Below are positions 27,893-36,871 of a stretch of 64,000 nucleotides of DNA, one piece after another. This DNA comes from Chloroflexota bacterium (GTDB taxonomy: Bacteria; Chloroflexota; Anaerolineae; Anaerolineales; Villigracilaceae), in assembly GCA_026390035.1 (NCBI GenBank), contig JAPLGT010000035.1, forward strand, positions 3,330 through 67,329. The letters run 5' to 3'. Under the pieces are notes generated by a model. The model was not told the DNA's origin. It saw nothing but the letters and a program-made list of their open reading frames with translations, and did no database searches. The translations under genes and the position numbers were made by a program. Numbering within the stretch: the stretch's first letter is position 1; each line of letters begins with the position of its first letter.

Positions 27893-29035
27893 ATGCCCAA
27901 AAAGGTCTTTGTCAGTGGATGCTTCGATTTACTGCACAGCGGTCATGTGGCTTTTTTTCAGGAAGCCGCCAGGTATGGCGACCTGTACGTTGCGATCGGT
28001 TCGGACCGCACAGTTTTTGAACTCAAGAATCGCTCCACAGTTAACAATGAAAATGAACGCAAGTATATGATCAAAGCCCTGGCCAACGTCAAAGACGTAC
28101 TGATCGCAAAAGGCTCGGGCATGCTGGATTTTGTTGATGAATTGAAAGAAGTCCAACCTGATTTTTTTGTAGTCAACGAAGATGGCAACCTGTTGGAAAA
28201 AAAGAAACTGTGCGATGAATTGGGCATCGAATATGTTGTTCTAAAGCGTGACCCTCACCCAGGCCTGACCCCGCGCTCAACTACTGCGCTGCGCGGAATG
28301 AGCAATATCCCCTACCGCATTGACATCGCGGGAGGCTGGCTGGACCAACCATTTGTCTCCCAATACCATTCCGGACCGGTGCTGACGATTTCAATCCACC
28401 CAACTATTGAATTTAATCAACGCAGCGGCATGGCTTCCAGTACCAGGGCTTCGGCGGTGCAAATGTGGGGTGCAAGGTTGCCTTCGGATAACGTTGAAAA
28501 ACTAGCAAAAATGCTATTTGCATACGACAACCCCCCGGGGACAAAAGAAATCTCAGGCTCCCAGGATTCGATCGGCATCATTTATCCTGGCCTGGCTAAA
28601 GCAGACTATGATGGCAAATACTGGCCAACCCAGATTACAGCAATGCAAGATGAACATATTCTGACATTTATTGAGGAAGCCCTTTACCTGATACCACTCA
28701 GCCCACGACCCTCCGGTTTCCATGTGCTCGAGAATACGAATATCACACCTGAAGGAGCCAAGGCTCTGGCCGACGCAGCTATTTCTTGTTGGGAAGCCAT
28801 CCTTGCCAGAAACGTGATCGAATTTGGTCGCAGCGTGCGCGCCAGCTTCGACGCCCAGGTGGCAATGTTCCCGCACATGTTGACTGACACGATGCTAGAG
28901 TTGATTGATATTTACCATGAACGCGCCCTGGGTTGGAAGGTCTCTGGTGCAGGCGGCGGCGGTTATTTGATCCTGGTCTCCGATAAGCCCATCGAAAATG
29001 CTGTGCGAATTAGCGTAAGACGCCAGAGCGATTAG
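27893..29035 (+). CDS. Bifunctional cytidylyltransferase-fold nucleotidyltransferase / fucokinase-like GHMP sugar-1-kinase
   Basis: The N-terminus VFVSGCFDLLHSGHVAFF carries the HxGH motif of the TagD/RfaE-II family. The C-terminus has RIDIAGGWLDQPF, SGMASST, SGSQDS and WKVSGAGGGGYLILV, which are GHMP/fucokinase-like motifs. TATAAT lies at ~27845 and GGAGGA serves as RBS. Confidence 0.8.
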   Translation: MPKKVFVSGCFDLLHSGHVAFFQEAARYGDLYVAIGSDRTVFELKNRSTVNNENERKYMIKALANVKDVLIAKGSGMLDFVDELKEVQPDFFVVNEDGNLLEKKKLCDELGIEYVVLKRDPHPGLTPRSTTALRGMSNIPYRIDIAGGWLDQPFVSQYHSGPVLTISIHPTIEFNQRSGMASSTRASAVQMWGARLPSDNVEKLAKMLFAYDNPPGTKEISGSQDSIGIIYPGLAKADYDGKYWPTQITAMQDEHILTFIEEALYLIPLSPRPSGFHVLENTNITPEGAKALADAAISCWEAILARNVIEFGRSVRASFDAQVAMFPHMLTDTMLELIDIYHERALGWKVSGAGGGGYLILVSDKPIENAVRISVRRQSD

Positions 29036-29160
29036 AAATTTACCCAGCACTAGCTAAAACCCAGGCCGGCCGCCATTCAAGCACGCTTTCCTACGGAATT
29101 CCCCCGATCATTTTGCGCAGATGAAAACAAGACACATCGGAACCATACACGGCTAATCTC

Positions 29161-29205
29161 AAAATCCATCAACGATAAAATAATATTTCGTCGTTGATGG
29201 ATTTT
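29161..29205. terminator. Bidirectional intrinsic terminator between convergent genes
   Basis: A perfect 15-bp stem, AAAATCCATCAACGA (29161-29175) / TCGTTGATGGATTTT (29191-29205). It has an A-tract on one side and a T-tract on the other. Confidence 0.7.
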
Positions 29206-29222
29206 GGGCGATACCAGAACAC

Positions 29223-34691: not shown

Positions 34692-34692
34692 T

Positions 34693-35781
34693 ATGCCCGA
34701 CACTGGAAGCCCGTTTTCATCCGAAAGTCAGTTCCGCGCCAGGTATCGAGACAAATTATCCGCCATGCTGCGAGCCAACACTACCGCCCACGATTTTGGG
34801 CTGAGCACGTTTGTCCTGGTGTGCGCCAATGCCTATTTTGACCGCGATATTCTGAACGAGCTGGACAATGACCTGCGACGGGCCTTTATCAACATCCGCG
34901 AGAAATACTTTCGGCTTTTTGCAGAAGGACAGATCCTGGATGAGCGCCATGCCGAAGATCTACTGGTGTTTTTGAAAATTGCGCTGGTTGGGCTGGAACA
35001 ACTGCGAGTAACAGAACACCGGCCCCTGGGTGAATGGACGCTCCAGTTTAACCACATTCGCTCATTCAGACCACAGAGAACCGCAGCCAGGTCGGTGCCA
35101 TCCATCGATATCCCTTTTAACGAAAATTCCTTTCACTACGACGCGGCACTGTGCGAGCGGGAAAGCTTCTGGTCTGGCAGCCTGGCAGGCAAAAACGTTT
35201 CCTTGCTGTATAACAAATACCCTTTCGCTCGCCTACACGCACTTCTAATTCCGGAACCAGAAAGAAAACAACGGCAATTCCTGGATCGCGAAAACCATGA
35301 CTGGGCCTGGAATGCGGCTCAATCTCTGGCGCAAGACCTGCCAGGATTTGGCCTGGGTTATAACTCGTTGGGAACCTTCGCTTCAGTGAATCACCTGCAC
35401 TTTCAAACCTTTATCGAACCAAACGGCATGCCTGTCATGCAAAACAGCTGGAAACACAATGGTGGCAGCCAGGAATACCCGCTGCCATGCATTGTATTTG
35501 ACTCAGTAGAAGCTTCGTGGAAATGGATGGAAAGGATCTACACCCAAAACAGCACTTCCTTTAATTTGCTATACACACCCGGGAAGATCTTTTGCTTCGA
35601 GCGTAAACGCCAGGGCACCTACCGGCATGCGCGCTGGACAAGCGGTTTTGCATGGTATGAACTGGCCGGGAACATCATCACCTTCAGCCGTGAAGACTAC
35701 AGCGCCCTGACACCCGACCGGATCGAAAAAGAGTTTAAAAAACTAAAAATCCAGCAGAAACAGAAGAACTCGGATGCCTAA
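34693..35781 (+). CDS. GDP-L-galactose / GDP-hexose phosphorylase-like HIT protein (VTC2/GDPGP1 family, HxHxQ)
   Basis: The ATG at 34693 comes 2 nt after the upstream stop, with GGAG upstream. LGYNSLGTFASVNHLHFQTF compares with Arabidopsis VTC2 LGYNSLGAFATINHLHFQAYY (from memory). Co-linear blocks also occur at HALLIPE, FNLLYTPGKIF and WYELAGNIITFSREDY. Confidence 0.8.
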   Translation: MPDTGSPFSSESQFRARYRDKLSAMLRANTTAHDFGLSTFVLVCANAYFDRDILNELDNDLRRAFINIREKYFRLFAEGQILDERHAEDLLVFLKIALVGLEQLRVTEHRPLGEWTLQFNHIRSFRPQRTAARSVPSIDIPFNENSFHYDAALCERESFWSGSLAGKNVSLLYNKYPFARLHALLIPEPERKQRQFLDRENHDWAWNAAQSLAQDLPGFGLGYNSLGTFASVNHLHFQTFIEPNGMPVMQNSWKHNGGSQEYPLPCIVFDSVEASWKWMERIYTQNSTSFNLLYTPGKIFCFERKRQGTYRHARWTSGFAWYELAGNIITFSREDYSALTPDRIEKEFKKLKIQQKQKNSDA

Positions 35782-36871
35782 AAAAGCCTTCGTCAGCGGT
35801 TGTTTTGATTTGCTCCACAGTGGTCATGTGGCCTTCTTTGAAGAAGCCGCCCGCTATGGCGAGCTATATGTCGCGATTGGTTCTGATCGCAACGTCTTTG
35901 AACTCAAACGACGCCCCACCATCAACAGCGAAGCCGAACGCCTGTATATGATCAAATCTTTGGCGTATGTAAAGGATGTATTTGTAGCCAAAGGTTCAGG
36001 GGTTTTGGATTTTGTGCAGGAACTGGCTGTGATCAAGCCTGACTATTTTGTGGTCAACGAGGACGGAAGCACGCCAGCAAAGAAAAATCTGTGCGAGGAA
36101 TTGGGAATCGAGTACGTTATCTTAAAACGCGAACCCCACAGCGGTCTGGCTGCACGCTCAACCACCGCCCTGAGAGGCGCGAGCCTGATCCCCGATTACA
36201 TCGGGCTGGCAGGCGGCTGTCTGGACCTGCCGGAAATTTCAAGGCTTGCTCCCGGCCCAGCCATCACCATCTCGATCCAGCCACTCCCGGAGCATTCATC
36301 CAGCACACGCAGGGCCGCGATCGAATTATGGGATGCGCGCCTGCCGGCGGACAAGCCCGAAAAGCTGGCCAAAGTTCTTTTTGGATATACAAACCTGCCT
36401 GGCACTGCTGAAATCCGCGGCTCAAAAGCCGCGCTCGGCATCTGCTTACCAGGCGTATCCAGGACAGATTACAGCGGACAATACTGGCCGGAACGTTTAA
36501 CCAATCAGCAAGATGAAGCTATCCTGAAATTCATCGAAGACTCGCTTATCGTGATTCCGTTTGATTTACAAACGACCTCATCGTACCCACACAAAATGAC
36601 TGCCCGTGCAACAGAAGCCCACTGCCGAGCCGCTGAAGCCTGCTGGCAGGCCATCCTAAAGCAGGATAAGCTGGCTTTTGGGCAGAGCCTGACGGCAAGT
36701 TTTGAATCCCAAACCGCCATGCTCCCACCAGACAAAACCACCCAGGAACTGATCGCCACCTATCGGGAACAGGTCCTGGGATGGAATATCTGCGACCTGG
36801 GACTGTTACTTGTGACTGACAAACCGTTGGAAAACGCCACCCGCATCAGCCTACGGCATGCGAACGATTAA
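35774..36871 (+). CDS. Cytidylyltransferase-fold nucleotidyltransferase fused to a degenerate (pseudo-)GHMP kinase domain
   Basis: The start overlaps the upstream stop (ATGCCTAA). The N-terminus AFVSGCFDLLHSGHVAFF is intact. The kinase motifs are eroded relative to the 27893 paralog: GGCLDLP, EHSSST, RGSKAA, WNICDLGLLLV. Confidence 0.75.
   Translation: MPKKAFVSGCFDLLHSGHVAFFEEAARYGELYVAIGSDRNVFELKRRPTINSEAERLYMIKSLAYVKDVFVAKGSGVLDFVQELAVIKPDYFVVNEDGSTPAKKNLCEELGIEYVILKREPHSGLAARSTTALRGASLIPDYIGLAGGCLDLPEISRLAPGPAITISIQPLPEHSSSTRRAAIELWDARLPADKPEKLAKVLFGYTNLPGTAEIRGSKAALGICLPGVSRTDYSGQYWPERLTNQQDEAILKFIEDSLIVIPFDLQTTSSYPHKMTARATEAHCRAAEACWQAILKQDKLAFGQSLTASFESQTAMLPPDKTTQELIATYREQVLGWNICDLGLLLVTDKPLENATRISLRHAND

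Follow-up and report, generated by a model that had tools for sequence, protein, structure and literature searches.

Within a 64,000-nucleotide stretch of a Chloroflexota bacterium of the family Villigracilaceae (GenBank assembly GCA_026390035.1, contig JAPLGT010000035.1, positions 3,330 to 67,329 of the forward strand), which we call the window, we find an operon-like unit whose LacI-family repressor gene is followed by genes for GME (a GDP-mannose 3,5-epimerase), a fucokinase-like GHMP kinase, a HIT enzyme of the GDPGP1/VTC2 family and a fusion of an HxGH nucleotidyltransferase to a degenerate GHMP domain (Table 1). We regard it as reasonably probable, though well short of secure, that this locus takes up free L-galactose and converts it through GDP-sugars under LacI repression, in the manner of a Leloir pathway for an L-sugar, and L-gulose may be a further substrate. 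This reading draws on the family membership of the enzymes, their intact catalytic motifs, the order of their genes, a shared operator and a catabolic neighbourhood. L-galactose is the 6-hydroxy analogue of L-fucose.

The gene list and coordinates of an earlier sequence-only reading of the window were all reproduced in our map of open reading frames (ORFs), and its parts list and family assignments proved correct. For comparison, 170 related loci, cited here by L numbers, were fetched overall. A scan seeded with the HIT protein covered one genome per GTDB species and recovered two clades, and a scan of metagenomes seeded with the kinase recovered at least 579 relatives.

The epimerase and the HIT enzyme

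In a search of the PDB, the SDR (short-chain dehydrogenase/reductase) encoded after the repressor matches plant GME structures best (8sg0, E = 3.6e-78; 2c59, 5e-76), far above the next family, GDP-fucose synthase (GMER; 2.2e-24), and the GalE-type enzymes (~1e-20). The residues that part GME from GMER and GalE are a cysteine acid, a lysine base (His in GMER), an arginine that acidifies the cysteine (Lys in GMER) and a Tyr-x3-Lys pair (PMC8787198). All of these GME-specific residues are found in the SDR, which aligns with plant GME at GAGGFIG22, C133 (SSAC), Y162GWEK166, K204 (GGREKAPAA) and R301 (GRNSDN). It also carries NLAADMGGMGFI, GTWDGGREKAPAA and GVAGRNSDN, and the co-linearity with plant GME that had been noticed at first sight is borne out by the structure matches and the kept catalytic residues. 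By sequence, the protein is a GME. The NCBIfam galE model reaches 71 bits against a cut-off of 262, and no GalK or GalT matches were obtained. The equilibrium of GME, at 80:15:5, favours GDP-mannose (PMC6678494), so flux from L-galactose would run downhill to GDP-mannose; the enzyme also produces GDP-L-gulose (PMC6678494).

The HIT protein carries the motif LGYNSLGTFASVNHLHFQ, and in its block G222YNSLGTFASVNHLHFQ238 the H-φ-H-φ-Q signature is kept, with a glutamine in place of the third histidine. This block (GYNSLGTFASVNHLHFQ) differs little from the plant motif, shares 43% identity with Camelina GDP-L-galactose phosphorylase (GGP) by BLASTP, and its residues N233, H234, L235, H236 and Q238 are invariant among 19 relatives. 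When a profile of 19 bacterial HIT relatives was aligned by hhalign with 12 database-named plant GGPs, the two matched over 271 columns with 99.1% probability (E = 1e-18); an Arabidopsis VTC2 sequence served as a fetch query only, and the comparisons rested solely on the retrieved named proteins. Identity to plant GGP across the aligned core is ~23%. The N-terminal ~100 residues form a bacterial-specific helical domain without counterpart in the plant alignment.

Precomputed annotation places Pfam PF26217 (GDPGP1_N) on all 120 relatives listed, and PF26216, the C-terminal GDPGP1 domain, on few of them; the hhalign alignment extends across the C-terminal part of the plant proteins to column 387, and residues 313-331 are weakly modelled by AlphaFold. 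The HIT protein gave nothing significant when scanned locally with Pfam and NCBIfam, apart from a weak HIT match at E ~0.09. The local Pfam-A set returned no PF26217 or PF26216 match although the precomputed annotation lists both (E ≤ 1e-5), a discrepancy of library version or threshold. A sequence search of the PDB was uninformative, and a profile search gave the yeast Ap4A phosphorylase Apa2 at E = 0.13 and no match to GalT. With the AlphaFold model as a whole, of moderate quality (pLDDT 78), Foldseek likewise ranked Apa2 first (5.7e-8, TM-score 0.35-0.43), as would be expected if the PDB has no GDPGP1 structure; none appears to have been solved. Whether the protein groups with GalT or Ap4A phosphorylase had been singled out as a point to check, and it sides with GDPGP1/VTC2 (E = 1e-18, against 0.13 for Apa2). 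By sequence it belongs to the GDPGP1/VTC2 family and is neither a GalT nor an Ap4A phosphorylase.

In plants, the committed pair of the Smirnoff-Wheeler pathway consists of GME and, after it, a VTC2-type enzyme, and the same pair could turn GDP-mannose into GDP-L-galactose, L-galactose 1-phosphate (L-Gal-1-P), L-galactose and ascorbate-like products in this bacterium. We consider such a biosynthetic role highly improbable. L-Gal-1-P phosphatase, L-galactose dehydrogenase and L-galactono-1,4-lactone dehydrogenase were not found among the scanned ORFs of the window or in the related loci, and an anomeric kinase would reverse the phosphatase step. When the genes of the ascorbate pathways were surveyed, no clear evidence emerged that prokaryotes make ascorbate.

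Kinases and nucleotidyltransferases

The window encodes three GHMP domains, two of which, the stand-alone kinase and the C-terminal domain of a fusion protein encoded upstream of the operon (the upstream fusion), are by their motifs intact fucokinase-type kinases. The stand-alone kinase retains YRLALSGGWIDQP, GGWIDQP, CGMGTST and GCGGGY; the fused domain retains YRIDIAGGWLDQP, GGWLDQP, SGMASST and GAGGGGY, and the sugar-site pattern R-x6-W-x-D is kept. The two are 34% identical (E = 4e-54). In FKP of Bacteroides, the fucose site includes Arg592, Trp599 and Asp601 within R-x-D-x-A-G-G-W-x-D-x-P, and the W599A and D601A substitutions each lower kcat/Km for fucose more than 3000-fold (PMC11982464). 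The kinase domain of the upstream fusion matches the fucokinase domain of FKP (9iip, 5yys) at 1.8e-11, against 0.004 for heptose kinase.

Pfam, NCBIfam and PDB sequence and profile searches of the stand-alone kinase were uninformative. Its AlphaFold model is poor (pLDDT 56), and the Foldseek matches of this model are to GHMP members only, which cannot indicate specificity. The family counts ~7,500 sequence clusters without a Pfam domain, and the only name it carries is "hypothetical protein". We propose that it is an L-galactose 1-kinase.

The third GHMP copy, at the C terminus of the fusion protein that closes the operon (the downstream fusion), is degenerate. It carries DYIGLAGGCLDLP and has GGCLDLP for GGWxDxP, with the Arg and Trp lost, and its phosphate loop is deleted, CDLGLLLV replacing the glycine motif. 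The degeneracy of the kinase motifs is common to the homologues in four related loci (L001:11076-12179, L085:10895-12007, L170:12166-13281 and L086:5987-7129), and a 6-residue deletion of the phosphate loop to those in L001 and L085. Because these changes recur in relatives, the domain is, by this comparison, a conserved pseudokinase and not a case of local decay, which suggests that it is retained for a structural or regulatory role. The whole fusion is 57-64% identical between genomes, against 76-93% for the adjoining operon genes. The fucokinase-type motif that the sequence-only reading reported for the stand-alone kinase is confirmed, and the third copy, as that reading had implied, is degenerate.

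Both fusions begin with an HxGH domain that clears the 21-bit cut-off of the Pfam model CTP_transf_like (PF01467), scoring 48.1 bits in one and 55.4 bits in the other, with HSGH at residue 15 and PRSTTALR or ARSTTALR at residue 128, and the two proteins are 56% identical. The best named match of these domains is rfaE_dom_II, at 49-54 bits against an equivalog cut-off of 181.5; in E-values, the N-terminal domain of the upstream fusion scores 1.1e-14 with this model and 1.8e-12 with CTP_transf_like. The scores and the kept HSGH and RSTT motifs bear out the initial assignment, and by sequence the domains are RfaE-II/TagD-type nucleotidyltransferases. RfaE domain II is a sugar-1-phosphate adenylyltransferase that uses ATP rather than GTP.

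A shared operator and sugar importer

The junctions of the unit from 31703 to 36871 are operon-like. A 42-nt gap between the LacI and GME genes contains AAGGAG in front of the SDR, only 1 nt parts the stop of the kinase gene from the start of the HIT gene, and the HIT gene overlaps that of the downstream fusion by 8 nt, so that the tight and overlapping junctions noted earlier are confirmed. A convergent VOC/glyoxalase gene (36868-37368) bounds the 3' end.

The operator palindrome ATGGTATCG(A/T)TACCAT occurs at two sites in the window, against 0.04 expected by chance, one before the LacI-GME operon and the other before the genes of a sugar ABC importer. The pair of importer and LacI operators is also present in L001, L005, L085 and L170, with the ABC-side site at the same position. 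An operator 5' of LacI is likewise seen in all four and in L006, L088 and L142, and single or double sites occur in the more distant loci L088, L142 and L145. LacI itself stands directly 5' of GME in most Chloroflexota loci. Because the window holds only these two sites and relatives pair them in the same way, the importer genes and the GME operon appear to form a single LacI regulon, and the shared operator and importer are, at the level of sequence, the signature of a sugar-utilisation system.

All three importer genes are collinear with L001, L085 and L170. The ATPase is 88-89% identical to its counterparts in these loci and in L006, with which it is also collinear, and it is homologous to the ATPase of a FucI/FucU-linked transporter in L087; the permease is 91-92% identical to those of L001, L085 and L170. 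The best NCBIfam match of the binding protein is the L-rhamnose-binding protein RhaS (4.8e-36, below the family cut-off). This match is one of several points that would suit the same chemistry acting on another sugar, be it L-gulose, L-fucose (yielding GDP-6-deoxy-D-mannose), D-arabinose or a heptose: the product range of GME includes GDP-L-gulose, GHMP heptose kinases are among the structural neighbours of the kinases, and two kinases with two transferase domains suggest more than one substrate. We nevertheless think this unlikely, because only L-galactose and L-gulose give a readily metabolised product, GDP-mannose, through GME, because in many loci L-fucose already has its own FucI/FucK/FucU route, and because the fused kinase domain is so much closer to the FKP fucokinase than to heptose kinase.

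Related loci

The nearest relatives are metagenome-assembled genomes of Anaerolinea and Anaerolineales. Collinearity with the window, at protein identities of 57-93%, is seen in four loci (L001, L006, L085 and L170), in the order ABC ATPase, permease, binding protein, upstream fusion, LacI, GME, kinase, HIT, downstream fusion and VOC; in L001, L085 and L170 the homologue of the upstream fusion lies directly 3' of the binding-protein gene. The order GME-kinase-HIT is kept in 17/17 Chloroflexota loci examined, with LacI directly upstream wherever an intact upstream flank is available. The coupling of GME to a VTC2-like enzyme, first remarked on in the window, is thus real.

Beyond these loci the make-up of the module shifts. 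Among kinase-seeded metagenome loci, GME lies upstream in 37 of the 41 with enough flank. In 44 of 55 the next gene downstream is of the cytidylyltransferase-fold type; a HIT gene follows in 0 of 55. In metagenomes GME and the kinase are usually partnered by a tandem protein of 274-286 aa (L087:9165-9989, with equivalents in L092-L168) made up of two cytidylyltransferase-fold domains, HxGH being degenerate in the first (DDLRLRH) and intact in the second (HSGH); the L087 protein reaches 76 bits with rfaE_dom_II, against the same cut-off of 181.5. In L156 the order is MFS transporter, GH29, GME, a protein with a Fucose_pyrophosphorylase domain (PF07959, 1.2e-59) and kinase, and L130, L133, L137 and L160 have a like succession of GH29, GME, gap and kinase, judged by spacing. 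In L003, L013 and L088, GME, kinase and HIT occur together with no cytidylyltransferase-fold gene within 10 kb.

GME and the kinase are, in these gene orders, a widespread core, beside which three unrelated nucleotidyl-transfer enzymes (the FKP-type GDP-fucose pyrophosphorylase, the cytidylyltransferase-fold protein and the HIT protein) alternate or combine; the HIT-using form in the window is a minority variant. The simplest reading is that the alternating enzymes all serve the L-hexose-1-phosphate/GDP-sugar step, and their alternation in the slot beside GME and kinase points to the conversion of L-hexose-1-phosphate to GDP-L-hexose.

Recurrent neighbours of the module are GH29 α-L-fucosidase, sulfatase, L-fucose mutarotase (FucU), FucI, an FGGY kinase (FucK), DeoR and ABC or MFS transporters, and in four loci (L003/L013, L012 and L145) GH29 is flanked by the GME and kinase genes. 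No glycosyltransferase is conserved beside the module in ~50 long loci. These neighbours have to be weighed against the alternative of an activation locus for glycan synthesis, in which GME would make GDP-L-galactose de novo, the kinase and nucleotidyltransferases would salvage L-galactose or L-fucose, the HIT enzyme would clear GDP-hexoses that are surplus or incorrect, and the glycosyltransferases would be encoded elsewhere. FKP-type salvage is indeed an established path to GDP-L-sugars for glycan decoration (PMC11982464), bacterial GME has so far been tied to lipopolysaccharide (LPS) and antibiotic biosynthesis (PMC6678494 among sources), animal GDPGP1 relatives act on GDP-glucose (PMC11066809), and a polysaccharide cluster lies at 49.7-63.9 kb of the window. 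That cluster, however, is 13 kb off, past an insertion sequence (IS) element, and in L001, L085 and L170 it lacks synteny with the locus. Control by a LacI repressor whose operator also precedes a sugar importer, catabolic neighbours such as FucI, FucK, GH29 and sulfatase, the lack of a conserved adjoining glycosyltransferase and an equilibrium in favour of GDP-mannose all argue against glycan synthesis as well, and we hold it to be improbable. A catabolic L-galactose/L-fucose route, which the sequence-only reading had put second, fits both the operator shared with the importer and the GH29, sulfatase, FucU, FucI and FucK genes of the related loci.

The other HIT clade comprises 69 loci, almost all from sulfur-oxidising Proteobacteria, in which the HIT gene stands alone: a GME, kinase or cytidylyltransferase-fold gene was found within 10 kb in 0/69. 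The HIT homologues of L002, L004 and L016-L084, mostly from sulfur-oxidising Gamma- and Betaproteobacteria, are 40-51% identical to the HIT protein of the window and have no sugar-metabolism neighbours. One stand-alone HIT locus, L034, is labelled Altiarchaeales.

A lineage-specific membrane gene

Between the upstream fusion and LacI lies a gene for a membrane protein that had been called GT-C-like, a label that we could not verify: Pfam, NCBIfam and PDB searches gave no match. The gene sits in a low-GC insertion (GC 0.40 across 30-32 kb), and a homologue was found in 0/170 related loci, the collinear L001, L006, L085 and L170 included. It looks like an orphan, lineage-specific insertion, and with no family signature and no homologue in any related locus we rejected it as a part of the system.

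The sequence-only reading had made this protein the end point of a nucleotide swap, in which GDP-L-galactose is cleaved to L-Gal-1-P and reactivated with another NTP, and the resulting NDP-L-hexose is used by the GT-C-like protein to decorate surface glycans. The needed families are present in GME, the GDPGP1-like phosphorylase and the HxGH nucleotidyltransferases, and the use of ATP rather than GTP by RfaE-II-type enzymes would suit a change of nucleotide. Yet with the membrane gene outside the system the glycan-decoration end of the scheme falls away, no conserved glycosyltransferase takes its place, the anomeric kinases are left without a role, and the LacI/importer regulon and the glycosidase neighbours go unexplained. 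Synteny largely refutes the swap, which we rate as very unlikely. The earlier interpretation had the families right and the coupling real and was probably wrong as to purpose; we favour its catabolic alternative.

The proposed route

In the L-galactose route that we favour, the co-regulated ABC importer would bring in L-galactose, and a fucokinase-type GHMP kinase, either the stand-alone enzyme or the C-terminal domain of the upstream fusion, would convert it to β-L-Gal-1-P. GDP-L-galactose could then arise in two ways. The HIT enzyme could guanylylate L-Gal-1-P through a His236-GMP intermediate, taking GMP from GDP-mannose (as a transferase) or from GDP (by reverse phosphorolysis), or the HxGH nucleotidyltransferase domains could use GTP. 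GME would convert GDP-L-galactose to GDP-D-mannose, from which the HIT enzyme would free mannose 1-phosphate (Man-1-P), with either phosphate or L-Gal-1-P as the other substrate, and housekeeping phosphomannomutase and phosphomannose isomerase would pass Man-1-P to glycolysis. The HIT enzyme would thus act as a GMP carrier between L-Gal-1-P and Man-1-P or phosphate. The chemistry has precedents: FKP carries L-galactose to L-Gal-1-P and on to GDP-L-galactose (PMC11982464; PMC6678494), and plant GGP works reversibly through a nucleotidyl-histidine and has hexose-1-phosphate guanylyltransferase activity (PMC11066809). More tentatively still, we suggest as a possibility that the locus belongs to an undescribed and widespread bacterial "L-Leloir" route, with the Anaerolineae VTC2/GDPGP1 enzyme as its L-Gal-1-P:GDP-mannose guanylyltransferase or reverse phosphorylase.

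Several points weigh against this route. Plant GGP has a Km of 45 mM for L-Gal-1-P and a reverse kcat/Km 10^4-fold lower, and its transferase activity is below 10% of its phosphorolysis (PMC11066809). Which sugar and which nucleotide are used, in which direction flux runs and how the HIT and HxGH enzymes share the work are all inferred. Two kinases and two nucleotidyltransferase domains exceed what a minimal pathway would require, so that the locus is likely to serve a second substrate or function as well. Phosphomannomutase and phosphomannose isomerase genes were not found in the 64-kb window. The upstream fusion has no operator before it and is parted from the ABC operon by a 9-kb insertion in the window. 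The Proteobacterial HIT genes stand alone and may serve in GDP-hexose housekeeping, and the ancestral role of the family may have been general GDP-hexose phosphorolysis. Finally, the kinase gene has no ATG, GTG or TTG at its conserved start, where an ATT (33909) aligns with Met1 of its homologues; the sole canonical in-frame start is a TTG at 33771, 53 nt inside GME, and a database protein that matches at 100% identity across the aligned region is annotated with a length of 260 aa. The gene may use a rare ATT start, encode an N-terminally extended protein or have undergone a mutation of its start codon.

Relation to known systems

Despite a marked likeness in logic, the locus is not a member of the Leloir pathway. 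In both, a GHMP anomeric kinase is followed in logic by a branch-III HIT enzyme (HxHxQ, covalent nucleotidyl-histidine) and then by an extended-SDR nucleotide-sugar epimerase, and both are operons under LacI-family repression with a link to a sugar importer. The locus differs in that it has no orthologues of GalK, GalT and GalE, in its extra HxGH nucleotidyltransferase domains, in the putative status of the HIT transferase role and, as proposed, in the use of GDP instead of UDP, in the inversion of C3 and C5 (L-galactose to D-mannose) rather than C4, and in its product, Man-1-P in lieu of glucose 1-phosphate. If the HIT enzyme acts as a transferase, the set would be GalK, GalT and GalE re-invented from the same three superfamilies.

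With the Smirnoff-Wheeler enzymes GME and VTC2/GGP, and with GDPGP1, the locus shares a close GME homologue with identical catalytic residues and, in GYNSLG(A/T)FA(S/T)(V/I)NHLHFQ, very nearly the plant motif. It is, however, bacterial, operonic and set in a catabolic context, its flux is probably reversed, its HIT protein has diverged in the core and bears an unrelated helical N terminus, and the downstream ascorbate enzymes were not found. Like Bacteroides FKP, it joins a fucokinase-type GHMP kinase to the guanylylation of a β-L-hexose-1-phosphate. FKP takes L-galactose, and an FKP-type pyrophosphorylase fills the slot in L156 (and, by spacing, in L130, L133, L137 and L160). In place of the left-handed β-helix of FKP the window has an HxGH cytidylyltransferase fold or a HIT enzyme, and coupling to GME would see the GDP-sugar converted rather than donated to glycans. 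HldE/RfaE also fuses a kinase to an HxGH nucleotidyltransferase for a β-configured sugar-1-phosphate. In the window the domain order is reversed, the kinase is of the GHMP and not the ribokinase-like type, the scores lie far below the RfaE cut-off, and the substrates are presumably L-Gal-1-P and GTP.

L-galactose occurs in pectin rhamnogalacturonan II (RG-II), xyloglucan, corn xylan, red-algal galactans and invertebrate glycans. Its catabolism in Bacteroides vulgatus, in work from 2014 ascribed to Hobbs, is said to be oxidative. In the papers found, bacterial L-galactose catabolism is an oxidative route from L-galactose through L-galactonate and D-tagaturonate to 2-keto-3-deoxygluconate (KDG), and the paper that describes it does not mention GDP (Luteolibacter lgu genes, 2025). 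Such routes share with the locus a presumed substrate and ecology, namely L-galactose set free from the glycans of plants or algae. In these routes L-galactose is neither phosphorylated nor activated with a nucleotide, and none of their enzymes is shared with the locus.

The sequence-only reading knew of no described bacterial locus that couples GME to a VTC2-like enzyme, and our full-text literature search likewise found no published account of the bacterial GME/VTC2-like/kinase gene set; most subscription journals lay outside that search, so absence is not proof. A 2024 review treats GGP as generally specific to green plants, with relatives in metazoans and protists (PMC11066809), and the locus gives the GDPGP1/VTC2 family, held to be confined to plants, animals and protists, its first bacterial context. 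If the proposal holds, it would add a third, mechanistically distinct route for L-galactose, by way of nucleotide sugars, to the oxidative ones, provide a function for a kinase family of ~7,500 unnamed clusters, and give bacterial GME a catabolic role. A VTC2-family enzyme would then run opposite to the direction of plant vitamin C synthesis, and the plant GME-VTC2 pair would gain a bacterial counterpart and possibly its evolutionary source. The enzymes are candidates for making costly GDP-L-galactose, GDP-L-gulose and L-hexose-1-phosphates, and every proposed step is open to test with recombinant proteins and purchasable substrates.

Layout of the locus and other features of the window

Table 1. 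Genes and operator sites of the locus and importer, with positions in the window.
Feature	Position	Strand	Evidence or remark
LacI-type operator ATGGTATCGTTACCAT	14699-14714		~70 nt 5' of the ABC ATPase gene
Sugar ABC transporter ATPase, two ABC_tran domains	14784-16298	+	Pfam ABC_tran 5e-54
ABC permease, BPD_transp_2, monosaccharide type	16367-17359	+	Pfam 1.4e-47
Periplasmic sugar-binding protein	17284-18453 (ORF coordinates; real start probably later)	+	Peripla_BP_4 5.4e-56
Upstream fusion: HxGH nucleotidyltransferase (N-terminal) and intact fucokinase-type GHMP kinase (C-terminal)	27893-29035	+	
Polytopic membrane protein, 623 aa	29223-31094	-	
Perfect palindromic LacI-type operator ATGGTATCGATACCAT	31660-31675		28 nt 5' of the LacI start
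LacI-family repressor	31703-32737	+	First gene of the operon; LacI HTH 2.1e-17, Peripla_BP_1 2.8e-33 (Pfam)
GME-like SDR	32780-33823	+	PDB 8sg0 3.6e-78, 2c59 5e-76; GME residues present
Stand-alone fucokinase-like GHMP kinase	33909-34691 (ORF also open from TTG 33771)	+	Motifs, paralogy
GDPGP1/VTC2-family HIT enzyme	34693-35781	+	H234-L-H236-F-Q238; hhalign against plant GDP-L-galactose phosphorylases
Downstream fusion: HxGH nucleotidyltransferase and degenerate GHMP domain (pseudokinase)	35774-36871	+	Paralogue of 27893-29035

Two adjoining genes were left out of the system: the VOC/glyoxalase gene, which is a conserved neighbour in the closest relatives only, and a radical-SAM/SPASM gene (13113-14366) that lies 5' of the importer operator and is kept in L001 and L085 and absent from L170. 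The 9-kb insertion relative to L001, L085 and L170 spans 18640-27473, between the binding-protein and upstream fusion genes, and contains genes for a glycyl-radical enzyme activase, a PFL-like glycyl-radical enzyme, GntR, a XylB-like FGGY kinase, a GAF protein, SurE and a truncated Ppx/GppA. The glycyl-radical enzyme scores 2.4e-73 with TIGR01774, far below every named equivalog.

Directly 3' of the locus an IS630-type transposase occupies 37435-38830 on the minus strand, as a helix-turn-helix ORF (38366-38830) and a DDE_3 ORF (37435-38337). Farther on, also on the minus strand, 40295-48982 encodes a 2895-aa secreted protein of repeated right-handed β-helix/NosD modules that are parted, as judged by eye, by ~90-aa repeats. 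The polysaccharide cluster (49714-63974, minus strand) comprises a Wzz/P-loop chain-length regulator, a formyltransferase, a polysaccharide deacetylase, a GT4 enzyme, a Wzy-like polymerase, a Wzx-type flippase, a DegT aminotransferase and a 4,6-dehydratase-type SDR. Near the other end of the window a gene for a heparinase II/III-like protein adjoins one for a GT4 glycosyltransferase (1955-5196), and upstream a NUDIX hydrolase ORF partly overlaps an ORF resembling the small subunit of ribonucleotide reductase.

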